Shown: positions 12,601 to 50,900 of the stretch, piece by piece
Numbering within the stretch: position 1 is the first letter of the stretch
Layout of the letters: each line of letters starts with the position of its first letter
Origin: Phoronis australis
Taxonomy: Eukaryota > Animalia > Phoronida
NCBI GenBank assembly: GCA_002633005.1
Contig: NMRA01000090.1
Coordinates: 978,736 to 1,042,735, forward strand
DNA: 64,000 nucleotides
Direction: 5' to 3'
The notes under the pieces: model-generated
Told to the model about the DNA's origin: nothing
Seen by the model: only the letters and a program-made list of their open reading frames with translations
The model's database searches: none
Position numbers and translations under genes: made by a program

Positions 12601-15479
12601 GCTCAAAAGAAAACCCGTCTGTACGTAACCGCAGCCGACAATTACTGTCACCCTAGCCCGCTTTTGTGGCCACACGGCGATTACAAGTGGCGCAAGTTAC
12701 CCTAGAACAATTTACCACACCTCAATAATGTGGAGTTAGTTGTCACAAGTGGGATAAGTTACGCACTATCGTCCAGACAGAACTCAAACCTAATGACAAC
12801 TCTTCCAGGAGTAACTTGTTCTTGAGTCTGTGTGCGTATACTAGGCACTCGTATCTACAGTCTAGGGTTTGTGGACGGCACTTAAAAGTTGTCACGATCG
12901 GAAGTGGGAACACTCAAACCAAGCGACAACTCTTTCCAGGAACAACTGAACTTTTTCAAGCTAGCTAGTGTGGATGGGGACTTTAGAAATTATGCAGGGC
13001 ATAATCATAGAACTTTAACCTTAGAATGCATCTTTGATTTCGTCCTGCTGAGGTTGCGCCGTACATGCGTGGCATTTGTTTGAATTTGTTTGTTCCGGTG
13101 TTGGTTATTCCTATGGAATATACTGTCAATAAAACTTTTTGCAATCAAATTGAATAAAATTCGTATCATCAGAAAGCACTTCATCAGCTCTTGATAGTGT
13201 ATGATTATAGTGGAAAGAAACAATAAAGAATTTAATTCATAAATAATCATCATTTCCCATACCTGACCAATATATCTTTTAATTCTAGAAAACAAGACCG
13301 AAAAATAATAGGGTATAATTGTTACATAAAAGGAAAATGAACCAGAGAGGTTATATACATGTAAATAAACCAACAGGGAGATAATTTCAATGATTCACGT
13401 AAGATTTTTACCCTCTCAATACAAAGATTTTAGAATATGGATCCCTCACAGTTGCTGTGAAGAATTTTGGAGGCACTGCTACAAAACATGGGATAAACTA
13501 ATTACTCCAACTACCTATCGGAAATTTGCAGAGAAAGACTTTCTGATAGTTAAAAAAGACCATTGGTAAACATGTATAGTGTAGGTTTGAAATGTTTTTT
13601 GGATAGATCATTACATAATTAAGTTGCAGTGTTGGACTTTGCGTAGTTGTTTGGAAAAAAACTAATTTCATTAGAAATTAACAATCGGTGGTCGTGACAA
13701 ATGAAGTGTGTTTTACCGTAAACAAGAGATAGTGTATTGGGACACGTTTTTAGGATTGTTGTGTTAGTAAAGAAAGTGGACTCTGGAAAATAGCGATATT
13801 CATGACAAAGAGACAAATGAGCACCTGTAGTTGACAGCATTCGAGAATGAAAAAACGGGACAACTGGACTGAAAAGCGGGAGTCTCAGATAAAAATTAGA
13901 GGGGCATCTGGGTCAATTCCAAAACGCAAATGTTTGCCACATCCGTGACACAAAAGCGTCCTGGCAGCGTTTTTTTGTCGAACAAGAGACGTTACAACAC
14001 AAAAGCGCCCGACGGTGTTTTTTGTTTTTGTAAGTCGAATGGACAATTGAAGGGGCCTGAAAAACTCATGCAGTGCCCCCTTTTGTTTGTTTTAGTCGAA
14101 TTGGAACAAGTGCTATGTTGCGTGAGACATTACAGGATATGATAGTATATGTATGTCCACGTCGCAGTGTGTCAAAAAGCGAGAAATTTTGTCGGTGTAG
14201 TGAGATGATGGGAAGAAATTGAAAAAGTCGAGTCCACCAAGAGCGAGACAACTGTCAAGAACAATGTACGTTGTCAGCGACCCAAAGGATTGGATTTTTT
14301 GCAAGGTAAACTTCTAATTTTTCAAATTATATTTCGCATGTCTGGGTAAATACCACAAGTAACATCCATTGCTCAGAAATAGAACCAGCAAAGAAGAATC
14401 TCGGCAACAGGTAAACATTGCACAAATGAATTACCGAGAAGCAACTGAACACAGTCATAATTGAGGCCAACACAAACACAAACATACGTCTACGCAATAC
14501 GAGTACTTTTTTCGAAAATCGCGTGAACAAATCTGCTAGTAGGGGTTAAACTTTTCATTAATAATTGCAGAACAAACACACAGAAACCAAATGACTGCTT
14601 CATTCCGTAAAAAAAGAAAAAAATCAGTAGCATACTGTATCATATTTCTAACACCTATGAAAATGACTTGTTGAAGATTTCTAACATGTACATTGATAGG
14701 TTGTCGAAAGTGGTTCCAAAACTGGAGATGAAAATATATCAGAGGCCAGACTCGCTATTCCCGGTATCCGGCCAAAGGCCACGGGTCGGCCCGGGTGCAT
14801 AAAAGGTAACCAATATAATTGTCGGGTTTATTGCCCGGACTTTGCCGGAAGTGCGCAAGCATTATCATGGCGCAGATCGTGAAATCGCTGGTTTCTGAAT
14901 GTGTAGCTGAGTCAAGAGTCCCTTGCCTTTGAACACAAATGTCAAAAATTAAAATGAAGCAAAGAATAAAGGCTTGATTTGTGACGACTTCAACACTAGA
15001 TCAAAGCTGGCCCAAAATTCTCATCGGTGCGAGAAGCTCGATCTTACTGCTCACTGAATCAGGGGGTGGCAAGTTCTCGGTCACGTGCAAGAGTTGGCAT
15101 TCCGGGGCTAGAGTATATGATGTAATAAAGGCACGTCACCTCTCAGTTTCACTGCGTGATTAATTGTTCTAAGTTGAGCTCTGATTTTTTAAAAAAAAAT
15201 AGCAGTTTTGTGATGTTTCGCCATGTGACACATACAGAACCGATCATGTCGTTGTAAATATTCCGAAATAACCAACAAACATATATCACACTATGCCATA
15301 CGAAACTGACCCGGGCAGGGGGGGTAAGTAAAGTCTTGAGTAGGCCTGGGTGGCTACATTCTTCAGAAACTCAGTCGCGACTGAAGCGTAAGATCAAACA
15401 CACGGCAACTCAGAACTCACTTAATTGTATGCGGCCGAGAACTAACGCGCGCACGAATTTACTTGCCTCCACGGAAAGC

Positions 15480-18800: not shown

Positions 18801-21800
18801 ACCCTTTAGTAGCCTGGTCTTTATCTATGGGGAGAGAGCTTTTCTGGAGAACCAATTGACCGCTTACACTGAGTCTTTACTTTCACATGTATTTAGTCTT
18901 ATCAACCAATCATCATTTTTGGCTTGAGACACTTTTTATGTTTCAGGGACTGTTTGTTTTTCCTCTGAACTGCACTAGTGTCTCCTGTCCTGGCCCACAA
19001 TGCAATGTGGTTCTCGCTTTTCACGTGAGTACCTGAGATTATGTTCTTTTTACAACTTTGATTTAATTTAATGTAGAATTTGTCACTTGACACAGACTTA
19101 TGGTTGCACAATTTAAAGAATAAACTAAAGAAATGGAAATCATTGTTTTGTTTCTTTATTAGGCCAAAACCCATAATTGGTTCTGGACTGGTTTTTTGAA
19201 AATGGAATTGGTGGACCGGGTTCAGTTGTTTTTTGAGTTGCTCACCATTTCAAGAAGGAAAATCCACGATCAAAAATCATGTGTGATTTTTTCATGCATT
19301 ACCTTAAGCAAATCAAGTCTTTTTACCCTTGCTTACGTACCTGGGGGCAGCTTTTGTTTGCTTGTCCGCTGTTATGTGCCCTCGTGTAGTAACACCGTGC
19401 AGGATGTTAATGAGATTTTGCAGAGGTGCTCCTAAAGGTGGATGAGCACAATTTTTGGAACCATATGATGACCACTGCGTCCCCTAGTAGCAATTTTATT
19501 TTACATTTCAGTAACTCAGTAACTATTGTATTCTCGGCATTTTTTCCATGATGAGATTTAATTATTTTTCTAATTGTGTGGAGTAAGGTCATATTTCTTT
19601 CTTGAGTCTTTAAGTCTTTTTCTCTGAGACAGACCCTTGGAGTATCTAACTATGTGTCTGTTACTTCCTTGTAGTCGACTCTGTGCAGCCTGTTGGTGAC
19701 AATCTTCTAGACAATGATGCAGGGTATGCTGTACCTGATCACAGAATGGTGCTTAACTCAGGTGAGTTTCCCTGGTTGGATGATGGAATTCGAATTGGGT
19801 GGTCTTAAAGGCGTTATATATCTGCATGTTATTAAGAGATAACATTTGGATTTTTATGTGTCCACATTGCTGTCATTTGTGTTCAGGTGTCCTGTGTCCA
19901 CTGCTGTATCTCCTGAATCCCTTGCCGTGGTAAATTGAGATTTCACAGATGTGCTCTCATCAAAATGACAACAGGACGAAGAATTTTCGAGCCGTCACAC
20001 TTCTGCTGTGTTCCCTATTGGCAATTTTAGTTTTTTACGTTTGTCTCTGTATCGTTGGAGTTCCTTGATGGATGTTCATGAAATCCGATCTTAGATATCT
20101 GTTAAGGTGTTGGCGATGCCTTCCCATTTTCGGACAGATTAGCCGTATCTTGCTTCACCTAATGACTCTGTTTCTAGGCACCCTGATAAGCAGAGTTCCC
20201 TTATGGTTTTTCATGAAATTTGGTAAATCAGTCTCTATTATGAAGACAACAATGCTTTGCAATTTTTGAAGAGATTTGATGGATTCTATCTGTGCTGCCT
20301 AATGGCCATTTTTATGCGCCCACATATTTATATGTGGACGCATTATGCCGTCATCTCTGTCCGTCCGTCCGTCCGTCCGTCCGTCCGGGCGGCGTCCGTC
20401 CGGCGTCCGGCGTCCGGCGTCCGCTGCTCTATCTCGAAAACCCTTTGACATACGTTCATGAAATTTGGCACATATGTTCCATTCATGAATGGGACGGCAT
20501 GTGCGAACTTTCGGACGGATCCGACTACCGGTGTGCCCCCTAGTGGCAATTTTAGTTTTTTACGCTTACCTTTGTATCTTCAAAAGTATTGAACGGATTT
20601 TCATGAAATTTGGTATGTAGGCACCTATTAGTGAGATGACGCTATCCTACTGTTTTCAGATGGATTCGACGTAGTTTGCGCCACCTAGTGGCCATTTTTA
20701 CTGTTTTCGAGTCTGTATTTTTGCGTCCACCCCTCTATCAACCAAACCGCTCAAAGGATGATTGTGAAAATTGGCGTGTATGTGCTTACTATAAGGAAGA
20801 CAGCTGACAATGATTTTCAGACGATTTGGACTACTGTGGCGCCTCCTAGTGGCAGTTTTGTTTTTTTGCGCCCATGGCTGTATCTCCCAAACCGTTTGCA
20901 GGATCTTTACTAAATTTAGCAAGTGTATTTATGTGATGTTGACAACGGACGATGACGACTTTAGGATGATTCTGATTACCGGTATGCCTCTAGTGGCAAT
21001 TTTAGTATTTGCCTCTAGTGGCAATTTTAGTATTTTACATTGACCTCTGTATTTTCATAGGTCTTCAGGTGTATACTTTGTGTTACTTCGTGACTGTGAA
21101 GGAAAAGTTCCTAGTAGAAATTTGTTTCTGGCATTCTAATGCTGTGCTAATCTCGTATGTTGGTAAATTTGTTTTTAATTCTATGTTTCTGTGGTGCTTT
21201 AAGCAACTGGTGTATAGGATGTGCTTGTATTATGAAGATTACTCACATTTTGCCCCTAGCCTATTGAGGAGACAATGACCATGCCTTTCCATTTTGCAAA
21301 GTATGCCCTCTACTGGCCACTTTATGGTACCAATAAACAACCCTAGAAGGATACCGTATGCGGTGCAATTGTGGGCGCATTTCAACGCTCCGCGTTGCTC
21401 TTGTTATTCTTTTTGAGCTCACCTGAGTCTATATCTGCCAAACTGCTCAAGATCAATATCAAAATTGGCAGATGTGATCCCATTGATAAGAGCACGGCTG
21501 ACATTTGATTTCATATTGGTCTGTCTACTTTGGCAGCCTCTAGTGCTACTGTCATATTTCATGGAATTCAGCAAATTCATTTTTCATTGGGATGACTACG
21601 CCTTCCCATTTTGAACAAGTTTGATGTGATATTTGTTGCATGTCTAAGTGGTTTTATCTGACAACCCTTAACATTTCTTGACTATCCTGACTGGCCCTGA
21701 ACTCAGAAGTTTATTTTTGGGACAAATATGTGGTGTGGGAACTTTTGCAGTTTTATGACAAAATCACAGATGGAAATTTCAAGTAAGAAATCCCTGCAGC

Positions 21801-24800
21801 TTGCTCCTTCAACTCATCGCTGCTAACTTTCTAGATCAAGATACACTTCCAATAATTTTGAAGAAATTAGAAAATTTTGTTGCACAAACAAAAAAGAGCC
21901 ACTATAAAATCGTTATAATTTGTTAACTTTGAAACTTAAAATGTGGTTCCGAATGCTTACGTACATTTTTTGGACAGTTGAAACTCCACTTGTGAGTCCG
22001 AATCCTGAACAAGTCGTGATGTACTAGTAACATCGTTGACAGAAATTCTAGCTGCTATTGCTTTGATCCCAGAAGTCAAGACAAATTATCATCAACATAT
22101 CTGTCTAAATTTTGCCTCAACCTAGCCCGACGGACACATCAGTGAGCATATGGGTAGCCCAGTGTGTCCTGGGTGGGGTACTGATCTTAAAACCCCTAAC
22201 ATTTGGTGGAGTCTTGCCCATTGTACTGGCTGGCACTATTACATGGCTATGACTCAAAGTGCATGGCAACGAATGGGAAAGTATCTCCATTTTATTAAAA
22301 AAAAAACAGGCAAACTTGCTTTCACAAAGAACCTGTTGACCAATAAGAGGGCTCCCGTGAATTTTAGCTCCAATGTTTTGTGTAATAGGCTCAACCATGA
22401 GGCCTGGGCACGTCTGATGCACTGCAAAAGACATCAGACCGTATGCAGTTTCTTTTTAAATTTCAGGGAGAATATTGCTCTTTCATTAAACTTTTTACTG
22501 CCAAATGAAAGACTAACATAAAGTAATTTTCTGATGTTGCAAATTGTCATTAGTGGCATTTTTATAGCTAAAACGTAGCAAACCAGATACAGTGGCCAAA
22601 AGCTGATATTGGCATTCATGTGGGTCATGTTTGAAGTCTCCAAAAAGTGACGTCAGTGAAAGAGTTGCAACGATGTCTAACTGGAAAGCATACAAAACTG
22701 GGGTTTTGACTACAAATGAATATTAACACCAAATTAACACTTAAATATTTGCATTAGAAGAATTCACTGAAGAACTTTGCCAGTCAGTCAGTTTGATTAA
22801 AGTTCGACGATTCTAAATACAATGGACAGTCATGTCTAACTCTTTGAGCGTAGTAATGATGGACAGTGGGATGAGGCTGTGTGTCTTGAACCACAGAATC
22901 CAGTTTGCGACACAATATAGATAAGTAGTAGCTGAACACTTGGGGAGAGGATACTAATTTCATGATATCTGGTGACTGAAAGAATGTATGAGGCATAGTT
23001 TGTGAACAAAAGGCAGCTGCGCTGGTCTAATTTTGGGGAAGCTATCGCTTTCTATGGTTATATACATCCTTACTCATTTTTCTCTGCAGGCGGAATGGCA
23101 GGTTTGAAGCCATTCTCCAGTCAATGCATTAGAAACCAATAACTGCAGTGCTTGCATTAATTCCAGCCATTAACTCAGGAGTAACGAATTATAGATTATT
23201 GTTATTTCCCATATCTTGACCCCAAGTGCGATTTTGAGGATTAGGGTAAATACCTGCTGAGCACGTGTACTAATTTATTTATCCACATCTTGACAATAAA
23301 CTCTTACAAAACTCACGAATATTTAAATGCAGCTATATGCAGCGTAGTGTATCAGCGTAGTGTATCAGCGTAGTATATCAGCGTAGTGTATCAGCGTAGT
23401 GTATCAGCGTAGTGTATCAGCGTAGTGTAGCAGCGTAGTGTATCAGCGTAGTGTATCAGCGTAGTGTATCAGCGTAGTGTNNNNNNTAGTGTATCAGCGT
23501 AGTGTATCAGTGTAGTGTATCAGCGTAGAGTGTGTGCGTAGTGTAGCAGCATAGTGTAGCAGCGTAGTGTAGCAGTGTAGTGTAGCAGCTAGTGTATCAG
23601 CATAGTGTATCAGCATAGTGTATCAGCGTAGAGTGTGAGCGTAGTGTAGCAGCATAGTGTATCAGTGTAGTGTAGCAGCGTAGTGTATCAGTGTAGTGTA
23701 TCAGCATAGTGTATCAGCGTAGTGTATTAGCGTAGTGTGTGTGCGTAGTGTAGCAGCGTAGTGTATCAGCGTAGTGTATCAGTGTAGTGTATCAGCGTAG
23801 TGTATCAGTGTAGTGTATTAGCGTAGAGTGTGTGCGTAGTGTAGCAGCGTAGTGTATCAGTGTAGTGTATCAGTGTAGTGTAGCAGCGTAGTGTATCAGC
23901 GTAATGTATCAGCATAGTGTATCAGCGTAGTGTATCAAATCAGACACTTGAGCGTCTTCTATCACGGAACATTGCAACATGTCCGTTACGTTTCCTGACA
24001 ACCGTTATCTCTCATGAGAGATAACTCTATGGGTTATTACCTTGTAGTTATTTACTGTTCAACTTCAAGCAGATAAATGCTAATATGATGAAAAAGGATT
24101 TCATTTCTATTTCATCAAAGTCTGTTTAAGCAACTTTTCTCATCAATCAACACAACTTTTTCAGTTTCCAGTGGATCTAGTGGGTATGCTTCAGATCTCA
24201 GCCGCCAGGTGTCTCAAGTCTCAAATGAGCCGGAAAACAATATTGTCGATAGCGTCAATGGTCCCTTTGGTGATAGCGAAGATGACAATGATCGCCCTGT
24301 AGATGGCATGGTTTTTTATGCTGCTCATGATTATGACGATGCTGAGAAATGGATTGAAGATATCAGGGAAAACGTCAAACTTAGAAATGGTAAGATTCTT
24401 GGCAGTTTGAGCATTGAACATTTCTCCTGTCATTGTGCAAAGTTAGAGAGAAGGCCTTTCCAAAATATTCCGTAATTGCTGACCTCTTAAAATTTACGTA
24501 TTGTTGTAACCAGCATAGCTTACTGTCAGGTTCAAGCTTGTGACTGCTTAAACTTCATTGGAAGAGTAAATATCGAAATTCAGTGCTTCACACTTAGCTT
24601 GACGCCAAGATCTGAAGGTGCATTTGACGACTTGGCAAAAATCGCAGGTCACCAAACAAAATCTGAGGTCGCCAAAAACTGACATTGAAATCGTCAAAAA
24701 AGGTCGTGCCATACTCCGTTCTTAGAAACTTTTGCTTACCTCTCCAATTTCTCCCCGAAAAAATGCGTACCATTTACTCTTTTACTCATATGCCACTGGA

Positions 24801-27800
24801 GATGAAACGCAGGCGATCGCATACACTGGAGGCACGTGTTTCACCGATCTTGCTCGATTTTTGCTGAACAATTCCGACATCTGTCTGTTTACTTCCTGTT
24901 GTAATTTAAGCACATGTTTAATGTTTAACGTGTGCTGACTGTTGTGATGGCAAATGCACTGATTTCATGAAATAAATGGAACAATTGTGAATCAAAGATA
25001 ATAAATCTAAGAAACCTGTTAGCAATTTAAAGTTTAGAAGTCAACACAACGGATTTTGGGGGAATTACTGTCTGACTTTGGTACTTGCAGTGGCGACTTT
25101 GTGGCGCCTTGGGATTTTTCCTAGGTCGCCAAAACACAATCTGAGGTCACATTGGGGACCTGCCGGTCACCAAATTGAGCACTAAAATTAAACCAAACCT
25201 TTTTTCAGGAAAACCTCCCGAATTTCGATTATTTGAAGTTAACTATGGAAAGAGCAAGTTTCATGAGCTGGATAAGGCAATGCGTCGCAGTACATACTGG
25301 TTGTTTTATTTGACATCAGAGCCGGACCCTTTTATTTTGAAAGCTCGTGACGAGTGCCTAGAAGAGGCCTTGTCAAACGAAGACCGTAGGTGGTCCATAA
25401 TACCGATTTTTACTGCACCAAAAGACAAGTTGTCAGTGCCTTCTGGTCTAAAGTCTATAGCTGGCATTTATACAGTTAGCACAAATATTAAATCTGTGTA
25501 TAGCAAGATGAAAAAGACATTCAATGAAAAACTCTACGAGAGGCTTGAGAGAGAGGAGCGTTGGAGGACTGAGAAACGGCAGACACAGATGAAAAAAGCA
25601 AACATGAAAAAGATGGATGAGATACTGGAACGGGAGAAAGCGAAAATTAAAAGAGATGATGAGTTGAGAGACAAGCAGATAGAATTTGAAAAGGAAATGA
25701 ATAAGGTTAAGCATAAACATGCGCAGATGGAGGCTGCTCGAAAGGAGGAACGGCGCAGGGAGCAGCAGAAGTTGGCAGCAAATCCAGTGATTGGTTCATC
25801 TGCAATGAGTGGTGTTCTGGTAATTTTGAGTCTTTGTTGGCATGTTTTTACGAAATTTTTCTCTTGTTATTCTCTTTTTCATTGCTATACTTGACGGTGA
25901 TTCCTTGAATGCATTGGTGATGTGTCAGGCATAGGAGCTGTTGCAGCTGATTTGAGTTGATTTCAAGTTGTGGCACATATCCTTGATGTATTCAATTTTT
26001 GCATCTTGTACAGTAAATTCCAATAACAGGCAGACAAAATGATGTGGAATTCTCTGTCAAAATGACTGAACTTAAGTGTAATAATGCCCCGTCATTACAG
26101 CTAAGTGCTAACGGGATTCACTGCCAGAGTGCCTGGAATGAACCGAAATGATGGGAAAACAAATTTTTGTCCAATTACTTCTGTGTAAGTCAACAATAAG
26201 TTTTCACCAATTCTAGTACGGTTCAAGGCAGCCCTGGCTGCTGTCAATTCTAGATTGCTCTGAGTCTTCTCATAATTTCGGAACAACACTCACTCTTTTA
26301 TTGACACATTGTGTATTAACCGTGATGTCAAAGTGAAGGCATGCACGCTACTGTAAGGGAGATATTTGTGAATTTTTTTAAGATTAGTGCAGACTGAGCT
26401 TTAGTGGTTGGATATGGTTGGTTGTGAGGACAGTTTGCATTGACTGCTGTTTCTGGTAAAGAACACCCTCAAATAATTCAACATGTCTATATTTTTCAGC
26501 CAAGAGAGACTCAATGGGATGGGGTGAGTGATCAACTCAACAGAGCTCCTGCTGATGTCAGGGGAGGTAACTCCCAGTCTTCACATTGTCACGCCAATGG
26601 AGCCTCAGACACCACTTGCACGGGTGAACGGGATGTGCCAGAGAGTCCTTTACATGGTACATATACATTAGTCACGATTGTTTTGATTTGTTAGAAGTGC
26701 TGGGCCCTCAATGCTTCGATTTTGGGACTGAATGTCGGTCCCATTCCCTTCTGAAAATATTTAAATTCATGAAAATCACCCCAATCAGGCCCAAACATTT
26801 CCCTGTGACAAATGATTAAAAGAATTCTCCTCAATAATGAATCACTTCTAACTCGGGCAGACTCTCGAATTCAAAAGGTTTTAATCTAAAATCTCCACTT
26901 CTAAAGCCGTGCCTTATTTGAGTTTACTGTCTCGATGTGGAGAACACAATAAAGATTAGTCTATCTCAAGTATAGGTGTGATCACATAGTGTTGAGCAAA
27001 GGAAGTCAAGACTGAATGTTGTGGCGACCAGGGCTGGAATTGGTGTTGATNGGAGGGGGGGTCTCTCTCAATAAAAAATTCTTTTCTCAGAAGGCACAGA
27101 CATCTCCCCCTTAGGTGGGCGTGAGTTTCTCATTGCGTAATTGCTGTTTTAATCTTATTTCTCGTCACTGCAAATTTATTTTGATGACAGTAACTAACTA
27201 CAATTAATATTATGTTAAAGACATTTTTCAGACTTGTTTGTTGCAACTTCCATGTTGCAGCTAGAGCACTGCTACAAGCAGACAACATTTTTGAAAAATT
27301 GTTGGCAACAACATATCAGAATAGCACTTGAAAAACGAGAAATGCAATTTTGCAATTATTTTTGTCCGAAATTGGTGAGATTTTACTGTACTAGGTCTAG
27401 AATAATTTTGCCTGATTACACACGAGTATGAACTCTTATTTAGGTTTACTGAGAGCCATTGAGCCAGCTGTTAAAGATGGTGGCAACCTAACGGTCAACA
27501 TAGAAAACCTGCAGATTGGGAACAACAACCAGGTGATGAAGACATCCTGTGGAGACACAGCAGGTGACAGGGACGGGGATGAGGATGTGGTGTACGTGCG
27601 TAAGGACACCAGCCATGACCCCCGGTGAGTCGGCGGCATCTGTGCTGGCATTAGCGCGTGGGTTACACATTGTCTCCTATTAATTACAGTAGCAAAGATT
27701 GTGGTTAAAAGTAGTCCTGAGAGCAATGGACTCTTACTGTAATTTCTCTGCCCTTTAATCATTCATTTGTGATTGTTGTCCAGCTCTTTGTTTTGTTGGC

Positions 27801-30800
27801 TGTTGTTGGAACCAATAGTCAGAGTCTTGCTTTTATTTCAGTGCTGCGAATAGTCAAGAAGCAAGTGAACAGACATTGGTGATATCTAGTGTTCATAAAG
27901 TTGATAGGTGAGTGGGAAATGTTTGTCAAGATCTTGAGACAACTGTGTCATAAACAGTATCCAGTCACAGGTATACCCAAGATCTGCCCAGGCATATATT
28001 TGCCAGCACCAGGTATACTCAAGATCTGCCCAGGCATATATTTGCCAGCACCAGGTATACCCAAGATCTGCCCAGGCATATATTTGCCAGCACCAGGTAT
28101 ACCCAAGATCTGTCCAGGCATATATTTGCCAGCACCAGGTATACCCAAGATCTGCCCAGGCATATATTTGCCACCACCAGGTATACCCAAGATCTGCCCA
28201 GGCATATATTTGTCAGCACCAGGTATACCCAAGATCTGCCCAGGCATATATTTGCCAGCACCAGGTATACCCAAGATCTGCCCAGGCATATATTTGCCAG
28301 CACCAGATCATGTTACAACCTGGCCCGGTTGGTTAATGTCAAGTGTTCACCTGTCGTGTGGCATTGCAATGGTGGATACCTGGCTGCTCCAACTACATGT
28401 AGGTATCCATCAAGTTGACTTTCAGTGATTGCTAATGCCCTTACTAAAGTAAATGCGCTAAGCTTTTGGACAGCCTTCAACAATGAAGGAATGCCGCGAT
28501 TTAGCTAGGAGGTTGCAAATCTTGGGCATATAGTTAGAGAGTTACATCACCTCTGGATATCTATACCTGGATTTAATCATGTCTTGTGGCTTCTATATGA
28601 AACTGTGAAATTGCCCTTCAGTTCAAGCCATAACCCCTAAAAAGCTCAAGTCTATAATATTAATTAATTCTACATCAATCCTTTATTTTTTTCAAATTTT
28701 GGTACATTTAAATTTCAGTCCACAAATGGTCTTTCACAACATTTAATTATTCACGACTGTTTGCGTCTCTATTTTTTTCCAAAAGAAGCAAAACTTGGAA
28801 TTTTTCTCAACATTCGGTGGGTTTGCTTTTTTGTTCACCCTGTACGATGACTGGGAATTCTGTTTCATCTTGTTGGACCACTTTTGGCAGGCACTGTATT
28901 TTATTCTAATGGCCATAACACTTCAAGTAACCATTCATTTGGTGGCTCATCAGTTATTGACTCAAGACCAAGTTTGCTTCCGTAATAGGCCCTAAATATG
29001 GGTAAATTTGGAACATCACATTTCAAAAATGGCTGATTGTATTCTTGTGAATCTTCCAGAGACTACACATTGTTCTCCAAAACACTGTTGGGAAGTGCTA
29101 TAAAAACATTGTAACAGTTGAAAATAAGACCTTTCTGATTTCCATGACAAAATGAAAACAAAACGATAATTTTAGAAAAGTGTAATCTCACTCAGCATTT
29201 ATGGGGTCTCATAATGAACATTTACACGAAGTAAAATATTATTATGTTATTGATATCATTGTTTTGCTCTCAGTGGTTTTACCTTTCTTTATACTTAATG
29301 TTACTAAAAAGATAAGGTTAATATGCGACTCAACTAATGGCAGATTGGTACATGAAATGTCAAAGACCAAATTTTAAGGCTTTCTGCTTCTAGAAAACAT
29401 ATACTGCAAACCTCACAGATACAGACAAAATGCAATTTAATTCGGAAATACCAAATACGAAAGTAACATGAAAAATACCTCAATACTGCCGCTCCCTGGC
29501 TCTCCTCACTGATGCCAAATATGCACTGCCACAATGTGAGTAAATCGAGTCAGCGCACAACTCTTATACTGAAATGAGGGTCGGGTCACATGCAAATTAC
29601 ATTCAGTCTATTCATCCATGAATATACACGTGACCATGAGCCACCCGGAGCAAACAAACGTGAAGTATCTTACAATAAAGTTTTGTAGATATTTGACTAA
29701 ATACACCAGTGAGGTAATTTAAGTCTAACAAAATTCCATCTGCCTTTCAGTGATCGTTTAGATGATGCCTGTATCACCAGTGTGAAGAGTACTATGTCCA
29801 GTGGTGTGGTGGCGAACGTTGCTGGCGCGGAGGCGAGTCTTGCCCCAGGGTTGACCACATGTACAGAACAGAAGGTTTTAAGTCCCAGAGAGCAGCATGA
29901 AAACACAGGTGAAATAGACTGGCAGATGATGCTGCCCTCTGTTGTTTTCTGGACTCGCTTATTGAATTTTCAGGGATCGAAGTCTGCAGACTGTAATGAG
30001 TGTTTGACATAATGTTGTCTAGTTTTGAGTTTTGACAAAGATTTTGTAATTTCAACCTGGAAATTGGTTATGTTACTGCGATTTGATATCAGTCTGAACT
30101 TAAATCAACCGAATGTAGTTTTTAAAAATGGCGACAATATTGCTTCTCATCAAAACTGAGGAAATTTCGGAACCAAAAATTTCTGTTAATATTTGTATGA
30201 ATTAGTGTACCAATTATTCTTTCTGGTTCAAAATGTTTCTTCTTTGTTACAAAGGTTTTTTCCATACAAATAATTTTTATCATGGCTGAGATTTTGTAGC
30301 AATTCAGTTAGCCCTTGAAAAGAGGAAATACTGCAACATTAATTTGGGCAATTATTTTTGTGTGAATAAGAAAAAGTCTTAAAACCTAACTTTGAACCTT
30401 TGTGTGTGAAATGTATTGAGACAGTGCAAGTTAAGCCAACCGTTTTTTAATGCAAAATACTTAATATGTGATGGGATGATACAATATGCCGTAACAAAGT
30501 TCGGAGTTCATCTACAAAATCACATGTCCAGTGTTACCAAAGTAACGAAATTGCCTTTGTAGCCTTGCAGTAAAACTTTTGCACCTGTCCAGCAACATGA
30601 ACAGAAAGTTAAAAAGTGCATAACATCAAAATATGACAACTATCCAAATTGATATACAGTACAAATTGATATACAGTACAAATTGACATACAGTACAAAT
30701 TGATATACAGTACAAATTGATATACAGTACAAATTGACATACAGTACAAATTGACATACAGTACAAATTGACATACAGTACAAAGTAATTCAACTGGACA

Positions 30801-33681
30801 ATGTGGACTGTTGACTTTTTTATTACTTTTAGTAAAATTGTAATGAACACGTCAGGCCTTTCCCTACAGTGTGTCCGGGGCATCCAAAAGGAAACTAGAT
30901 TCAAATTTAGATACCCAGTTAGAAGACTCTGTTCAGCATTTGAAAACCCAAATAACTGAGCAACTAAGCATTGGCTCCTCTTACTAGCTGCAGCTCAGGG
31001 ACCAACAGTTCACTTACCTGTCCAGGATAAAATAGTTGGTTTAGAAATGATGGAAGACACAAAAAATAGTGCACATCAACCATTTTTTCATGGTAACATA
31101 CCACAGTATAACAGCAATATGATTTGAGATTATAAAATGCTGCTGTGCATTATTGGTCAAGGACGCCCTGAGAAATTGAAAATCTCATTTTGCATGCCTT
31201 ATTTTGAAACCCTGGATGAACCGCTGAATGAACCTCTTGTTTAGTCTGGAGATTTTCGTAGTTTAACTGTGAACAAATTTCTGTGCTTTGTCAGCTTGCT
31301 TTGCAAATTTCCTGTGTGGATAGTAATAATTTCTGTGTTAACATTCATGTTGGCAACACATGCAACAGGATGGGAAGGAGATGAGATCAAACAAATTGGT
31401 ATCTTTGCAAATACGCAATGTGATATGCAGTTTATTTTCAACTTTAGCGTATGTGGAGTCACTGAAGATGATACAGACAAAGTCCGTTCCTGACATTGAC
31501 GTTGGAGACCCAAAGAGCTCCAAGTCTTGCAATAGTGCTGTCTCATCTCCTTTCATGGATGGGATGTCCACTCAAGGCGGGACCAGCATCGAGGGTACTT
31601 CGGTTAAGGGTTTGTGTCTGAGCGGCTCTGGGAGTGCAGACATTGCTGATGGTGGAGCTGATGTTCAGAGGGAGACTCCATCGCACTATATCTGCCAGGC
31701 GGACGAAGATCCTGCTAATCAAGCAGAGATGATGGCCCAGAAATTAGGTAGGAAATGTTCACGGTGAGAAAGGCATGCCCTCTGGTGTAGATTATGCCCG
31801 GGTACATGCTTTTTAATTTAAAGCGAGAAATAATTAATGATCCTGTGAGCACGGTTCAGTGCCTACAGTCCAAAGGCTGTATTGTATAAAGGTTCAATAG
31901 TTGGACAGCAATAGTCGATGTCTGTTTAGTTCAAAGACTCCATAATTTGAAGTTTTTATTGGGTGAAAGTTATATAGTTGGTTCTAGAAAACATTCAAAA
32001 TATAGACAATGTTTAGGTCACAGACTGCAGCGACCTCTACAGTAGTGAAGTAGAATCTCAGAAAATAAGAGTGTGTTACGAGCATTTTCAGAAAATTGGA
32101 AGCTTGAGGATGAAGAAGTAATTGTCACGTTTGCCAGTCGATACAAAGGGATGGATCTCAGTTTTTGCCAAACAGGTTTACCAATGCGTAAACTGTAAGT
32201 TAATTGCTGCGGTCAATTCGCAGGCGAGTAGAAATCATGTTCTGTAATCCCTAGTGGCGACAAGTTTTATATTTGATCGCACTTCCATTTTGTAGTCGCT
32301 CATGGCAGCTTCGGGGTTGCAAAGTTATGTCCTGCATGTGTGTGTGTATGTGTGTGGGTGTGGGNTGTGTGTGGGTGTGTGTGTGGGTGTGGGTGTGTGT
32401 GTGTTTGTGTGTGTGTGTGTGTTTTCATGCCCTTGGGAAGGTGCAGCTGTGTCCAAATCTGAGCACTTTTGTCTGTTTACCAATTTTGCATTGTATTGTT
32501 TTGAATTGTGTCGATATTGAATTGTGTTGTATTGAACTCTATTGTATTTTATAAAGTATTTTCTTGGACAAACAATATTTAATCAAACATATTAAATCAA
32601 TCAATAAAAAATATGAAACATGTCTCAAATTGGTTCACAGTCAAATTACAGGTGATTTCTGGACATAGAATTATCTGGCAGTTATCGCTTAAAGCTTTTG
32701 GTTATCTGGATTGGCCATGGACGTACTTTTTTTGCAAAACTATCCTAAAAAGCATGGTTACATGACCTAATTAATACCAAATTGGTGTAGAGTCAAAAAT
32801 ACAATTTCAAGGAATTTCTACTCTCGGAAAACATATAATTTTGCAGAGTTAAATTTGATGTTTTAGTTGATATTTTCCTAAGTGTACAGACTTGGCGACA
32901 AGGTCCTACATAACCTTAAATGTGCGCTAGTGAAGTTGGCTAAGTATCCATTACGGTGCCAAGAATTGATAAAACTGCATCAAAAACATCCAGGTGTATG
33001 ACCTCCTCATTTGTGCAAGAGTCACTATAACTGCATCTGTTGATGACACTTGGTCTGCTCCCACCCACTCTGTGGAAATTAAAAATAACCTATTTCTGGT
33101 ACACGAGATGTAATGTAAGGATTTATCCCAGCATCTTTCGATCTATTTAAGGTAACTACGAATTGCCAGTCAAAGTACGTTATGCTGGCGTGAACAAAGA
33201 ATCAGGCACCCCCCAGTCACTCACATTCACTCAGGCGTCCGTCGATGAAGGGTCCCCGTCTTTGCCATCGTCTGCCTTCCCGACAGTCGTCGATGCACAT
33301 GGAGAACAGGACACGTCCGAGCCAATCAGAATACCAGGGAATGCTGACGAATCATTGCAAAGACACACAGCATGCAGTTATGACATCGGCTGTTCATCGT
33401 CAGAGGCTTCTGGAAGAGGAGAGGAATCTAATGTAAATTGTGAGAGCAGTACTACTTGGTATCGTACACTAGATGATGCTAGTGATCTAAATGGTAGCAT
33501 GTCACCAGGACAGACAGCTAGAAGTGAGCAAACGGAGAAACAATGTCTTGACCCATTGAGCCACAAACGCCAGTATTTGACAACAGAGGGCACTCACGCT
33601 GAAACTGAACCAGGGTCAGATGTTGTTGAGGATAGCAGATCAAAAACAAATGGTGGAGGCAAAAAATGTGCGATAATGTGA
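15874..33681 (+). CDS. Multi-exon TIR-domain adaptor, TICAM/TRIF-like (TIR + coiled coil + RHIM-like motif + C-terminal CaaX), ~761 aa (765 with microexon)
   Basis: Manually joined GT-AG exons: 15874-15910 (MLLSFHHGVDIE, tentative start), 19675-19761, optional 23090-23101, 24165-24389, 25209-25819, 26500-26656, 27444-27624, 29751-29908, 31448-31747, 33152-33681. All intron phases match, and the total is 2286 nt = 761 aa + stop without the microexon. The TIR-like segment DGMVFYAAHDYDDAEKWIEDI...FRLFEVNYGKSKFHELDKAMRRSTYWLFYLT...RRWSIIPIF...KMKKTFNEK resembles the TICAM1/2 TIR pattern. The first two exons are less certain than the rest. Confidence 0.8.
16220..16932. repeat. Three diverged copies of a ~200-bp unit in +/-/+ arrangement (fold-back)
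   Basis: Unit acagctgtctaga...gcagtagagatg...attatgcctcacactgatt...gcatagagggacacc at ~16220-16455 (+), ~16560-16715 (-) and ~16708-16932 (+). The last two meet at cagctg (~16709-16714). Confidence 0.75.
18138..18302 (+). repeat. Diverged copy of the 3' end of the 24581-25184 element
   Basis: ttaaagtttggaagtccacaca...acggattttg...tgtctgactt...ttgggatttttcc...acacaatctga...gagcac aligns to 25027-25183. Confidence 0.7.
20309..21405 (+). mobile_element. Complete non-autonomous Helentron-type element (HINE/DINE-1-like)
   Basis: T-run, then a 5' subTIR/hairpin atgcgcccacata-ttta-tatgtggacgcat (20314-20343), a (CCGT)n microsatellite (20360-20425) and tandem ~150-160 bp core repeats (ttcatgaaatttgg..., gccccctagtggcaattttag). 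The 3' end has subTIR gtgggcgcat (21371-21380), hairpin caacgc-tcc-gcgttg and a T-rich end. Older decayed relatives flank it at ~19851-20308 and ~21411-21660. Confidence 0.8.
22105..22440 (+). mobile_element. 3' remnant of the same non-LTR family (CCHC + 3' UTR) in a TIR-gene intron
   Basis: MGSPVCPGWGTDLKTPNI matches MGSPVCPECGTDVKTPNH at 44.6 kb. The tail aataggctcaaccatgaggcctgggcacgtctgatgcactgcaaa matches aatgggcccaaccattaggccagcgcacgtctgatgcaccgcaaa at 44.85-44.9 kb. Confidence 0.8.
23341..23937. repeat. 13-bp minisatellite (agcgtagtgtatc)n, ~45 copies, contains an assembly gap (Ns at 23481-23486)
   Basis: Direct tandem array with point variants. Confidence 0.97.
24300..25535 (+). other. 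TIR domain coding region, split by the intron 24390-25208
   Basis: Alternating beta/alpha TIR pattern: betaA DGMVFY, alphaA DYDDAEKWIEDIRE, betaB FRLFE, BB-loop NYGKS, alphaB KFHELDKAMRRS, betaC YWLFYLT, alphaC PFILKARDECLEEAL, betaD WSIIPIF. Recognised by eye, no HMM was run. Confidence 0.75.
24581..25184. mobile_element. Non-autonomous DNA transposon filling most of the intron that splits the TIR domain; 5-bp TSD aaatt
   Basis: Termini cagtgctt...gagcacta, aaatt on both sides (24576-24580, 25185-25189), and subterminal ggtcgccaaa/ggtcaccaaa repeats. A partial relative lies at ~17950-18302. Confidence 0.7.
27968..28306. repeat. 42-bp minisatellite, 8 near-identical copies (intronic)
   Basis: Unit caggtatacccaagatctgcccaggcatatatttgccagcac. 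Confidence 0.97.
30645..30784. repeat. 17-bp tandem repeat (caaattga(t/c)atacagta) x8
   Basis: Direct tandem array. Confidence 0.95.
32337..32422. repeat. (TG)n microsatellite with TGGG interruptions
   Basis: Seen directly. Confidence 0.95.
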
Positions 33682-41900: not shown

Positions 41901-44900
41901 ACTTCGAAATGAGGTTTTCGAAGGGCATACGGTTTGCCACATTTCTCATGGTAGTGCTGGTTAAGGTTCGTGTTGATGTTTCTTTGTTAAATTTATGTCT
42001 GTTTTCTATAGAATTAAAAGCCACTGTACACTTTTAGGCTCTTTGCTCATGCCTCCATATCCCAAAACCTACTCACACATATTCTAAATGAACGGCATTT
42101 TGATTATTAGTTGTCTTCTGTTAAAAGTATTGTTAACCCGCCTTCCGTCGAAAATTTTTCTTCTAAAAACGTTTTAGTCACTTATGGTTCATTAAATTGA
42201 TCTCAGTTTGTCCCTTTCTAAAATTAGACGTATCATTTGAGCCAAAAGTTTGTATTCCCACCTCACACTTGACTAAGAGTGAGACTTAACACCTTCGTTA
42301 CCGGTGATGGATTTTTTCAAATACCTTCACTCCCAAATCATTTATATAACCCATGTAGGTTCTTTGGCACGAAAACTCGGCAGCCTAAATCAAGACTTTC
42401 ATTTTTCCAGGAATTTTGACCTTTTTGTTTCTGACAGCTGAGTTCTCGGTATAATAGTCCACAATTAATATCATCATCCTGTAGGTTTCAATAATGCTTG
42501 ACGCTTTAATGCTATTCAAAAATATTTCTATCATTGCCTCGCCAACGTGAAATACATATGTATTTTCATTGTCTGGGTAGAACATTATACGTACAGTGTA
42601 CTTTGACTTGACGGCATCGTTGATTTGCTTCTAATGACAATGTTATCTATCGTACAATTAATACTAGTGCTCCGAAAATGATTCATTTTTACTCCTTTAC
42701 AGAGAAGTACCGCTATGATTCGTCATATGGCATCTTTCAATATTGACCATTCACATACAAGTCCAAAAATATTCATTTCATACCTATATGATCACAGAAG
42801 GTTTCTCTCGAATTGTAAAACAAGATATTAAATTATTAGGTGATATCCTTGCACCTGTGCCACACGAATATCTGTTATGCATTCAAAGCACTTTTAACGT
42901 ACATCAAGATCTGCTCCGTGTCACAAATCTTCCTTGCAGTGATGTGCCGTCACGCACTTCATAAACTGTTCGCCATGCCTGATCTTTCAGTGAGATCTAC
43001 AGATCCTTGCCCAAACCCTAAACACTAAGTGGTAAATCACACAAAGCTATGGATGCAGGGACAGACTGCTGTCAATTTTCTCGGATACTGTGACCAACAC
43101 TGCAACAAGGTGTGTTCGTGAGTGTGATACCAGTCTGGTTTCTAAGGTTTGGTCAGGAAGCTAGCAATCTCAAACATCAAACCTGACAGCCAGTTCCACG
43201 ACCAGGCATGAGTTTTTATGGACCAGGAAGCTACTTAAGTTGACATCGACTCTTTGGATGAAACCGGCCTAGTTGTCTGTGCAATGGCAACCCTGAATTC
43301 TCTGAGATATGAAAATTAGGTACATGTATGAGTGAAAGTTGCTACCGAACACAGCCTCAGTTCAGACGGTTGATGCAAGCCCTCCTACGTCGACTTTGGT
43401 GAAGTACTATAGCCTCACACTAGCTGTACATGTATTACAACTCCAGATCCAGAAATGGTTAAGTGTCTCATTCTGTGCACCGGGGCTCTAAAGTCCATAC
43501 AAAGCAGGGCACCATCTGTAATGTGGAATGTGTGCCAGTACTCCAAATGACATTGATTTATGCCGCTGTTATCCGACCTGTAATGTCTTATGCTGCGTCA
43601 GTATGGGTAACAGCGTTAAAACAGTTTACAATTATCAACAATCTTTATCAGACGCAACGTCTTGCTTGTTTGTACACCATCTCTGCTTTTCCAGGAACGC
43701 CCCCTACAGCCATGGAAATGCTAATCGGTTTACCACCACTGTACATATACATGTACTTGAGGGTGAAGTTGCATGTTCAGGGCTTCGTCTCAGATACACG
43801 TATAATCATGGTCAGTTGGTGAAAACTCACATCCCCGATTCCGTTGCACACGAAAGCCTCAGGAATGTGTGCAATAAGCTAATGGTAAAAATTGGGCAAC
43901 TACGGAACATGCCTAGTGATGTCCAGATCACCGCTTCGAATTGGTGATAGATGGCCTACCGCAGAACACAACAACGAGGTGGTTTATTAGAAGCATGACT
44001 CTAAACTGGAGAATGGCCAGACAGTCGCTGGAATGTATTTTCTAAGCCTATATGTTGCAGATGCAGAAAGCTGTGTATCGTAGGCAATCTTGCCATAATG
44101 TTCTAGGATGAGATCACTGCAATTAATAGAGCTGCTCAACTGGCATGACACTATAACACCGAGCTGAGTAATCAGCCAAATACCTATTTTCAAATAGCCT
44201 GAGCAGCAATGAATCCCTAAAGAGACCAAGGGTCAACTCTCGATGCTTGCATAATGAGCTTAACAAGCTTACACTTGAAAGAACCGTCAATATACACTGG
44301 GTCAGAGACCATGTGGGAATTGACGGCAATGGAAATGCAGACAGACTCGCAAAGACAGGAGCCAGCATTCTGCATTGTGTACATGAACCTGCTATCCTGG
44401 TATCTTACGGATGCTACAAGATGAGTATACGCAACTGCTGGGTACATACATGTACATGTACCCAATCAGCAGCCCTGTGAGCAACAATTAACTACTGCAG
44501 AGAGACGGAAGAGAATTTTTTGAGCTTCATCAAACCAAAGGTTCAAAAAAACCTTCAGAGTCTCGATACACGTCATTCAAATTTTGACAGACCACTGTAA
44601 CCTAGCTCCACACAGACACATTTCTGGGCCCATGGGCAGCCCAGTGTGTCCCGAGTGTGGAACTGACGTTAAAACCCCTAATCACCTAAGGAGTAACCTA
44701 CTGGATGACACTGCTACATGCCTACAACATATAGCGCATGACAACAAACGAGAATGTCTGTCCGTTTTCGTAAAGGAGACAGGCAGAATTGAAAACTTCC
44801 TTCACGAAGAACCATAACGGGGCTCTCGTGTTTTTAGGTCACGTGTTTGGTGCAATGGGCCCAACCATTAGGCCAGCGCACGTCTGATGCACCGCAAATG

Positions 44901-47900: not shown

Positions 47901-50900
47901 ACATGTATTACCTGTTATTTCCACACATTCAGTTGTACCAAATATTACAACCCCCCATGCCAATTCTCCCTCGGGACCTGAATAAGTAATTTAACAAAAT
48001 GACTTTAAAAATAGCTGTTCCTTTTCAAAGGCTTTGTTCGTTGTCTCCAATATTCAAAGTAGGCTTTGACAACAGATCTGCACTGGATGGGAAGATCTTG
48101 TTGGTTAGCTGCAGTCAAATGCTAAAAACCAATTTTTGTCCATTCAGGGACGGTGCAGAAGCGATGCATATCTCCTCTGCACGGTACAAGCCTTCAAACC
48201 TAAAAACCAAAGGTTACGTGAAAACTGACGTGATAGATTTCCATTTCAACGTGTAATAGATTTCCAGAAGACATATGATAGGGAGTAAACAAATAGTCTA
48301 ATGCAATGGATATTTATCACTCACGTACCCTTTGCCATTGGGATTGGATTGTAATCTTAACTCATTAACCTGTATCGAGTTGACAGCATAAACATTCAGC
48401 ATTGATTGATGTAACTGTCACTGATAAACTTTTAGAAATCATTCCAAACAATAATAATGCTTTGATGTACGAAAAGATCCCGATTGCTACGTCAAGTATC
48501 GTATCACACATCACAACATACAAAGATTAACTCTGGCTGGCGACTGACTGCCGCGAAGTCGACATCGGCGAGTGCCTCAGTTAACAGGCATCAGTGGAAT
48601 AATCATGGAATAATCGTTAAAACAATCACAAACCTTACCTTTGTATGAGGTCGCGCTTACTTCCTCTCATAGAAGCACCCTTTTTACGCAATCTCAGATT
48701 CAGTTGGCACGGCTGCAAGCCATTTCACCATGTATTTAAAGGGCTCGCGAAATCGAGGCTGTTAATCTATCACCACTAGTACACGCACGCCCTCTAGTTA
48801 TTGTAGATTTTCCGAATAGCCCCATTGATCCTTCTTTGCCGTGGCCAAAAACTCCTTATTGTCCTGTGACATCACTTTTGTCTTGCGTCACTGTTCCCCT
48901 AAGCTCAGTTGCACGAAAATGTTTCAGACAACACAAGCGTGCATGGCATAAATTTGTGTTTTACACGCACCCATACTTCTACAGGGTGGAATCAAAGCAG
49001 TTGTATGGACCGACGTGCTTCAAGTTATCTTCATCATGGCAGGTCTGGTTGCCATCTTGATTAAAGGCTCAATTGACATGGGTGGTTTCGCCAACGTTTG
49101 GGAGATTGCCGGCAATGTTAATGGAAGTCGGTTGAACTTCTTCGAGTGAGTACTTTAAAATAACACATAGTCGACTTGCTGTGTTTATTATTCGTATGTT
49201 CATATTTCCAGAGAAACGGAGCGAAAGTTTCGCCCGTCGGTGGTTGGCCTTACAATCCAAAACTAATCAGGCCCATGAAACTAGTGGATCACATCGAAAA
49301 TTTTGTATCCGGAGCTGTGCTCATTTCAGAAACTACATGTATGAAACTAGATTTTCTGCACCATGCCGGAAATTCTTTAATTACTCGCTACATGAACTTT
49401 TGCCTCGTTTTCTCGGATTTTTTGTTTCTCTGAGGCGGACCTTTTGGCCCTCTTCACCAAATTGGGGTGGGGGGCTCCTTCAAGTCACCCGAGCCCCCCT
49501 GGGTGTACGCGTGTGAAGTTGGCATTACGCTTCCCAAAACCATTTCTTTCTGAACAATTTTTAAACCCCACTTAAACAGAAATGCAACATGTATGAGAAT
49601 GTACTATTATTTTCTTTTCACAAATAGTTGTGTCGAGCGAAGAACCAAACTTTTGACTTGACTCTGACGTCACTTTTCATGCAATTGATAGAAGTCTTCA
49701 GAATTTTTTGTGCCTATTGTCTTCATAAGGCGCAGATTGTTTTGTCATACCTTTCCTGTTATTTCGTTTCCAGCTGGAACCCTAACCCAACAGCTCGCCA
49801 CACTGTTTGGTCTCTTGCTATTGGAGGAACTTTCACAGCTACGACGCTGTTTGGATTCAGCCAAGAAAGTATTCAGCGAATGCAATGTTTACCGACACTG
49901 AGAAAGGCTAAAATGTGCGTACAAACACTGTAGCATCCTTGCCTTGGAAACTCAGTATTTACTGGTTTGTGCTGAGGGAGAAATGTCCCTGTTTTAATCA
50001 TCTGCAAATTCAGTAGAAAAGGCAATTCCTGGACTAGGCGTTCATCTGGATCTCGCGTGGCTACCAGCATATTCGTAGATAACGTCCTCCATAGCTCCCC
50101 ATTAAAATGAAAGAAATCATCAGTCTTTTACTATTAAAATAATTGTGTCGCAGAAACAAGAGTCGTTAAAACGTAAGCCGTTATAAAACAAGGAAATGCT
50201 GTAGAAACAACCTATGGTACATGAGATGACGCATAAAGCGTTTTTGAGCTACGTGTACATGTACTAATAACAGTCCAAGGGGTCAATCTGCTGTCAGGTA
50301 CTTTAAAATGCACAAAAGTTATTAGAGTCAAGAGGTGATTCGGAGCAAGCTGTTACAGGAGTGCGTTTCAAGAGAAGTGACTTGAAATTTGAAGTCAAGA
50401 ATTTGATCTTACACTCCACGCAACTATTTCTGAAAAACAATCAGATCTCATTCGAGCCAAACTTCAGATTCTGAGAATATACAAAAAAACTGCTAACTTC
50501 TAAGATAATTTTACCAATACGTCTAGTCTGTAAGGCGTAAGTAATTGCTTGACCACAAACATTTGTTTAACGTTCTTGAAGTGGGAGAGTAAAACAAATT
50601 TCCGTCTAAGGTCACTTTTCATTAAACTGACCCCTGACCAGCCTTCGCCCGTGCAAGTCACTCGTGTTACTTCCGGCAGCAGAACTTCCTGAAGATGGAA
50701 AACGCAATGTTCTGTTGAAGATTCTTACTTCTACGCCAGCTGTGACCGTGCATATTACTTTCCGCTTATTTTTTGTTTAATTTCAAATTGTACTGCGCGA
50801 ACGGGAACACGGCGAGTCTGGGCATCCTGCGCGTTTTAAGTTGTCATGTAAACACGGCATTACACGTAATTATGAAAGCCGATCTGCAACATTCAAATTT

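Follow-up and report, generated by a model that had tools for sequence, protein, structure and literature searches.

A predicted gene of the phoronid Phoronis australis encodes a TIR protein that carries a putative RHIM-type amyloid motif and ends in a CaaX box. The gene lies at 19675-33681 on the plus strand of a 64,000-nucleotide stretch of contig NMRA01000090.1 (assembly GCA_002633005.1, positions 978,736 to 1,042,735 of the forward strand), which was analysed as a whole and is called the window below, all coordinates being counted from its first letter. Sequence comparison indicates that the motif, at 27485-27538, is very probably a true RHIM-type motif of the family to which the protein belongs, whatever its output. 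As to that output, a slight balance of probability favours the RHIM of a prenylated TICAM-like adaptor, in which TIR input at the membrane would be followed by assembly, RHIM stacking onto a RIPK1-like kinase and activation of NF-kB.

A RHIM-type motif shared with relatives selected by their TIR domain

The initial annotation had proposed a RHIM-like motif with core LQIG, preceded by a hydrophobic strand and followed by an Asn-x-hydrophobic step, within a disordered region. Frame 1, read from 27200, indeed gives NLTVNIENLQIGNNNQVM at 27485-27538 on the plus strand, with the core tetrad LQIG at 27509-27520. It lies in a predicted exon (27444-27624) whose splice-site boundaries were also borne out, with a tttag acceptor before 27444 and a gtgagt donor after 27624, the latter being consensus and the best donor of the eight GT sites compared in the open stretch around the motif (27416-27628, 70 codons); the exon fits a frame-consistent model of eight exons. 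Past the Gly, an Asn at the third position is followed by any residue and an apolar one (GNNNQV), and the flanks are acidic and 20-26% hydrophobic, with a net charge of -26 downstream (disorder being judged by composition only), so that both of these features were found as described.

The bare tetrad [IVL]Q[IVL]G is uninformative, occurring 12 times in the six frames of the window against 10.2 expected. Shuffling the modelled protein 200,000 times produced the tetrad in 10,303 cases, and in 73 cases the relaxed 9-mer [IVL]Q[IVL]GxxNx[MLIV], a pattern defined only after the sequence was seen. A second 9-mer is present in the window on the minus strand at about 50860-50890, intronic and bounded by stops; lying in non-coding DNA, it indicates that 9-mer matches can be chance products. 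The strict TRIF pattern [IV]Q[ILV]GxxNx[MLI] (PMC9440496) is unmatched by the window motif, and LQIG deviates at position 1 from the (V/I)-Q-(V/I/L/C)-G core of PMC9444067 (these and all other papers given by PMC number are cited from excerpts of their text).

What places the motif above the chance level is that the same motif stands at the same place in relatives selected by their TIR alone. A phmmer search with only the TIR part of exon 3 (E up to 0.001) yielded 66 proteins of 23-42% identity, among which the 9-mer is found in 8 (shuffle mean 0.05), the 7-mer in 11 (0.22) and the tetrad in 16 (3.8), counts that are not independent events given shared ancestry; 38 of the 66 are shorter than 600 residues, many of them probably partial. 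A gapped profile built from the sites of 25 relatives selects the window motif at 12.9 bits, a level reached by none of 2000 shuffles (maximum 5.8) and passed by 32 of the 66 relatives, 25 of these being the training sites, and by 25 of the 28 long ones. The site lies downstream of the TIR in all 32 profile-positive relatives, as it does in the window model, and the whole-family profile places the window motif on the family motif columns 373-393, at a negligible score. Canonical xQIG cores are kept in bivalve, gastropod and brachiopod members. The PDB matches of one Lingula relative (P0026) are to TICAM2 and then to RIPK3/RIPK1 RHIM constructs (10 of 11 rows); its IINIYNSSGIQIGNHN is aligned to the RIPK3 RHIM with E 6e-04 for 7dac, aided by flanking low complexity, and it reaches 19.8 bits with Pfam RHIM (cut-off 20). 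In the PDB search with the family profile, RIPK3 7dac was matched over the motif columns at E 0.093 (0.023 in a repeat).

Names were looked up for 30 of the 66 relatives and 13 could be named: Potamilus (3), Mytilus, Argopecten, Pecten, Mya, Mactra, Haliotis, Patella, Gigantopelta and Lingula (2), that is, 11 molluscs and 2 Lingula proteins, with no deuterostome among the 13, a composition that makes a spiralian source of the window likely. The window TIR shares 28-35% identity with its 15 best-scoring relatives; in a phylogenetic tree it falls outside a 45-row group that holds all named molluscs, a position that is unsure as long branches meet there. One well-supported clade of nine relatives (P0005, P0015, P0019, P0027, P0035, P0038, P0050, P0059 and P0061) has cores devoid of Q (VMIG, VMVG, LMMG, VMVA, VMMA).

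A TICAM-like TIR domain followed by a long helix

The affinity of the TIR domain emerges from the family. Compared singly with Pfam, NCBIfam and PDB sequences, the window exons matched neither TIR nor RHIM, word-index homolog searches returned no relatives, and the TIR leads in the ESM Atlas were all under 0.9. The family profile gave, among the TIR rows of PDB, TICAM2 at E 5e-12, TICAM1 at 0.002 and MAL at about 1, with similar values in a repeat comparison; its other rows, poly-Q and coiled-coil, are composition noise. By structure, Foldseek with the partial TIR of the window (exon 3) placed TRAM (E 0.012) and TRIF (E 0.021) in the top rows, no row being at or below 0.001, and for the relative P0010 TRAM was the top row (E 2e-05); VIA-align of the P0010 fold gave Z-scores of 16.2 for TRIF, 15.3 for TRAM and 14.8 for MyD88. 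The best PDB match of the Mactra relative P0065 is likewise TICAM2 (1.7e-07), and its database name, TMED7, may derive from a TMED7-TICAM2 fusion.

The catalytic Glu of SARM1-type NADases, which we take to lie four residues past the helix-C Trp, is missing: this position is Ala in the window, and Ser in 34, Gln in 15 and Ala in 6 of the 66 relatives. By its sequence, the domain appears to be a TIR of the scaffold type, TICAM-like. The AlphaFold model of exon 3 (mean predicted local distance difference test score 85.6) contains a helix over residues 108-190, and this long charged helix after the TIR is, in the model, a likely coiled coil.

A predicted gene of eight exons

All seven introns of the gene are GT-AG with matching phases, and the model comprises 718 codons to a single stop; its exons were hand-picked from a candidate list, so that the phase fit is supportive and not proof. 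The GC content is 47% in the exons and 39% in the introns, that of the window being about 40%. In order, the product consists of an acidic N-terminal region, the TIR, the long helix, a linker, the motif (residue 352), about 350 acidic low-complexity residues and a terminal KKCAIM-stop.

Exon 1 (19675-19761, plus strand as are all others, phase 1 to 1) is predicted from its AG/GT ends, open frame and phase fit to exon 2, with no homology support, and would encode disordered N-terminal sequence. Neither a start codon nor the true first exon could be located upstream of it. A candidate first exon at 14200-14305 (plus strand) was rejected: its phase-1 donor fits exon 1, but it has no in-frame ATG, the ATG near 14208 being one base off; this stretch may be non-coding, or a first exon in which the assembly has slipped. 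Exon 2 (24165-24389) contributes the first strand and helix of the TIR from 24299, recognised by a family profile made without the window (E 2.5e-07, single comparison), and exon 3 (25209-25819), whose TIR part was the query that found the 66 relatives, contributes the rest of the TIR to about 25546 and the charged long helix at about 25532-25780. The junction between the two is backed by homology, as a relatives-only profile crosses it with 148.8 bits over residues 74-292.

Exons 4 to 8 are supported by splice sites, phase and family order. Exon 4 (26500-26566, phase 0 to 1) has a TRAF6-type pattern, PxExxW, at its start, which was discarded as evidence (found in 92,126 of 200,000 shuffles). 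Exon 5 (27444-27624, phase 1 to 2) carries the RHIM-type motif. It is followed by exons 6 (29751-29908, phase 2 to 1) and 7 (31448-31747, phase 1 to 1), both predicted from splice sites and phase and encoding disordered sequence, and by the predicted last exon 8 (33152-33681).

A CaaX tail and other putative lipid anchors

Exon 8 terminates in two lysines, a CaaX box (33667-33678) and the stop, together at 33661-33681. That this is the end of the protein presupposes that exon 8 is the last exon; a KK-CaaX end arose in 15 of 200,000 shuffles. A CaaX box in which X is Met favours farnesyltransferase. CaaX-like ends are found in 8 of the 66 relatives, against 0.21 expected from shuffles; one of these, P0044, is doubtful. 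Such ends occur in members from Potamilus, Mytilus, Argopecten, Pecten, Mya, Mactra and Lingula, and all seven have the motif as well. Forms within one cluster occur with or without Cys at position -4 (Gigantopelta isoform X1 versus X2, and Mytilus 921 versus 805 residues; P0017/P0093 and P0021/P0074/P0076), which hints at a membrane anchor switchable by an alternative last exon, or differing between paralogs. Three of the 66 relatives start with MG, among them Patella P0053, which has Thr at position 6 and no CaaX; from its sequence, this start is possibly of the myristoylation type as in TRAM, a swap of lipid anchor. A C-terminal prenyl anchor on a TIR adaptor was not found in the literature searched.

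Likeness to known systems

By family profile, single relatives and Foldseek, the best TIR match is TRAM/TICAM2 (PDB 2m1w, 9dki, 9dlg), with which the protein would share the logic of a lipid-anchored adaptor (predicted here) and the lack of a Glu four residues past the helix-C Trp. TRAM consists of a TIR only, with an N-myristoyl anchor (PMC9440496), whereas the window protein adds the long helix, the RHIM-type motif and the C-terminal CaaX, and TRAM has a BB-loop proline that the window protein lacks. The domain order, a TIR and then a disordered region with the RHIM, is that of TRIF/TICAM1 (PDB 8rlm, 9dk8, 2m1x), whose TIR is second-best by profile and the top row by VIA-align. TRIF differs in having the pLxIS motif and an N-terminal domain, neither of which is seen in the modelled protein with its incomplete N-terminus; conversely, the excerpt of PMC9440496 lists neither a CaaX tail nor a long helix for TRIF. 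No pLxIS occurs in the 718 modelled residues (N-terminus incomplete) and none is enriched in the relatives, and the Pfam families listed for them, 25 of 54, do not include the TRIF N-terminal domain. Of the short patterns upstream of the TIR, PxExx is borderline (13 of 60 relatives against a shuffle mean of 6.6 and maximum of 13) and a DSG-type degron is weak (3 of 60; a looser form in 8 of 60 against 2.3); TRAF2/3 patterns were dropped as evidence.

An invertebrate precedent, amphioxus bbtTICAM, is a single TICAM resembling TRIF and TRAM together, with RHIM-dependent binding of RIP and NF-kB activation without interferon (PMC6043800); it is a chordate protein, while the 13 named relatives of the window protein include no deuterostome. 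The RIPK1/RIPK3 RHIM (PF12721; PDB 7dac, 7da4, 8ib0, 9hr6) has the layout of a hydrophobic strand, a (V/I/L)Q(I/V)G core and xxNx-hydrophobic, which the window motif follows in part; the window motif departs from it in the L that begins the core, in the one-residue offset of the upstream strand and in the lack of any Pfam score. The ecTIR-DC proteins are conserved invertebrate TIR proteins for which an adaptor function has been hypothesised, with no mention of RHIM or CaaX in the excerpt of PMC6321704; the family may already be one of their numbered groups, the comparison having been made by a citing description only. Cryptic RHIMs of the IMD/PGRP type sit in a PGRP tail or in death-domain IMD, whereas the host of the window motif is a TIR protein, and no PGRP or death domain was seen in the window exons scanned or among the Pfam families listed for the relatives. 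The initial annotation had expected an amyloid partner that was either a RHIM kinase or IMD-like; as the host is a TIR adaptor nearest TRAM/TRIF with a CaaX tail, a RIPK1-like partner is favoured and the IMD/PGRP part of that expectation is disfavoured.

Proposed mechanism and alternative explanations

In the mechanism that we favour, the CaaX cysteine would be prenylated, presumably farnesylated, and would anchor the protein in the membrane as a counterpart of the N-myristoylation of TRAM. Receptor TIR domains would nucleate a filament of the adaptor TIR, with the long helix aiding pairing, and the RHIMs, crowded on long disordered linkers, would seed cross-beta stacking with the RHIM of a RIPK1-like kinase. 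The output would be MyD88-independent activation of NF-kB and not interferon, the latter being disfavoured because the modelled part is without pLxIS. Several known systems offer parallels. RHIMs form amyloid and have disorder on both sides (PMC4262963, PMC9444067), and amphioxus TICAM uses its RHIM to activate NF-kB through RIP (PMC6043800). RIPK1-like kinases with a RHIM are known from zebra mussel and other spiralians as well as from Lingula, and the RHIM in the C-terminus of zebra mussel RIPK1 is required for NF-kB; LQIG is moreover a natural RIPK3 variant that is functional when placed in human RIPK3, where ZBP1-dependent death is normal and the output to NF-kB is reduced (PMC12119088).

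A number of observations weigh against this mechanism or against parts of it. Regarding the motif, scoring with Pfam RHIM (PF12721), which the initial annotation had named as a check, gave no match to the window exon at E up to 10, and the model reaches only 2 of the 66 relatives, at best with 19.8 bits against the cut-off of 20, being insensitive here; the motif is thus classed as RHIM-type by family homology and not as a Pfam member. The RHIM identity first proposed is upheld by the family motif and by the Lingula relative aligned with the human RIPK3/RIPK1 RHIM, with Pfam silent on the window. Of the predicted upstream strand, VNI beside the core fits, and the outer hydrophobic residue is shifted by one position relative to the spacing of the family and RIPK3, which accounts for the weak score of 6.8 with an ungapped family matrix, reached by 6 of 1000 shuffles. 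Conservation of the core is likewise partial: along with the relatives that retain the tetrad, many have drifted cores (VMIG, VIIG, VMVG, LMMG), so that the core Q is not strictly constrained. Skipping exon 5 alone loses the frame, and skipping exons 5 and 6 together keeps it to the CaaX end, making a transcript form without the motif possible.

As for the TIR, the Z-scores of TRIF/TRAM and of MyD88 differ by no more than about 1.5, a small margin, and the BB-loop proline is missing: the window has NYGK, and Pro is outside the four commonest residues at columns 111-115 of a gappy alignment. TRAM signalling requires the BB-loop proline P116 (PMC11788365). Because of this absence, the domain is filed as TICAM-like and not as a TICAM member, and TICAM orthology is beyond the reach of the tree, whose rows are the 66 relatives and the window, none dropped, without vertebrate or amphioxus TIR. 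Cys at position -4 is found in only 7 of the 28 relatives of 600 residues or more; TRAF6-type sites downstream of the TIR, rejected as evidence, are not enriched (20 of 65 against 20.7 in shuffles); and the RHIM of human TRIF is dispensable for NF-kB in HEK293T cells (PMC12119088).

Some of these observations would fit a protein that has a real RHIM and acts as a brake: bound to the membrane, it would serve as a decoy for TIR filaments or RIPK1-like kinases and damp the signal. The missing BB-loop proline, the lack of enrichment of TRAF6 sites and the many drifted RHIM cores all point this way, and in amphioxus, TICAM signalling is inhibited by TIRA, which does so by binding to RIP1b and TICAM (PMC6043800). 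We nevertheless hold a brake to be unlikely, since TRIF and amphioxus TICAM, both activating adaptors, have the same order of TIR and then RHIM, and since bivalve, gastropod and brachiopod members have kept canonical xQIG cores. It is similarly conceivable, if quite improbable in our view, that a real RHIM serves self-assembly or a CARD-RHIM or IMD-like partner, leading to cell death rather than to NF-kB through RIPK1. Bivalve CARD-RHIM proteins exist and have been copied by a cockle iridovirus (PMC12452177), varied RHIM proteins occur across invertebrates (PMC4262963), and no RIPK ortholog was found in Aplysia, in the excerpt of PMC9334734, though gastropods hold the adaptor family; against this stand the RIPK1-like RHIM kinases reported from spiralians, zebra mussel among them, and from Lingula, and the use of RIP by the sole tested invertebrate TICAM, that of amphioxus.

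That the motif is, in this species, a chance or decayed match, its exon being skipped or its assembly lost, is very unlikely. This would agree with the other chance 9-mer in the window, with the in-frame skipping of exons 5 and 6, with the off-register upstream strand and weak ungapped score, and with the modest identity of the window TIR to its 15 best relatives on an unsure branch. On the other hand, the family motif profile selects exactly this site with no shuffle of 2000 as high, the whole-family profile aligns the motif to its proper columns despite the negligible score, the donor of exon 5 is the consensus gtgagt, and the position of the motif agrees with the family order.

Other features of the window

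Intronic tandem repeats lie within the gene at 23340-23937 (13 bases, 46 copies), 27968-28306 (42 bases, 8 copies) and 30645-30784 (17 bases, 8 copies); the 42-mer array, just past the motif exon, creates several spurious open reading frames. Further along, exons of an SLC5 sodium-solute symporter gene (SMVT/SMCT/NIS-like) occupy about 48985-57560 on the plus strand, the exon at 48985-49143 matching SMVT (E 1e-07) and one near 55900-55990 having short NGS repeats. Decayed retroelement pieces are found at 43463-44480 (plus strand), with an RNase H match at 44172-44477 (E 8.9e-07), and an intron-free stretch at 61546-62109 (minus strand) encodes four to five Notch-type EGF repeats (Pfam EGF, E 5.6e-30), with no obvious neighbouring exons.

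Significance for the origin of TIR-to-RHIM signalling

The excerpts of earlier work place such adaptors in chordates: no TRIF homologs are stated outside chordates (PMC6043800), TRIF-like TIRs are given as restricted to jawed vertebrates (PMC7075850), TRIF-like adaptors appear earliest in lancelets (PMC9440496, PMC11788365), TICAMs were, as expected, not found in Aplysia (PMC9334734), and no RHIM was detected in two nemerteans (PMC9835746). Prior hints comprise a weak TRAM match in Mytilus and cnidarian claims (PMC3308963). No spiralian TIR-RHIM-CaaX adaptor was found in the paper listings and excerpts searched; relevant accessions may be given in the supplements of PMC12119088 and PMC9440496. 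The combination of TIR and RHIM is known from TRIF and amphioxus TICAM, and invertebrate RHIMs are also known; the spiralian family, its RHIM and its CaaX were not found in print. The names that members bear in databases are misleading ('serine-rich adhesin-like', 'daf-12-interacting protein 1-like', 'TMED7') or empty, and their scores with the Pfam TIR and RHIM models are mostly below threshold, which would explain the family having been overlooked.

We see about an even chance that the protein is a spiralian TRIF/TRAM ortholog, that a MyD88-independent relay from TIR to RHIM amyloid dates to the bilaterian ancestor, and that RHIM and prenyl anchor are united in one protein, switchable in some species by an alternative last exon. 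For the spiralian RIPK1 known to have a working RHIM, the excerpt of PMC12119088 names no upstream RHIM adaptor, and the family described here is a candidate for that role. The origin of MyD88-independent, amyloid-based Toll signalling thereby becomes testable in mussels, scallops and abalone.

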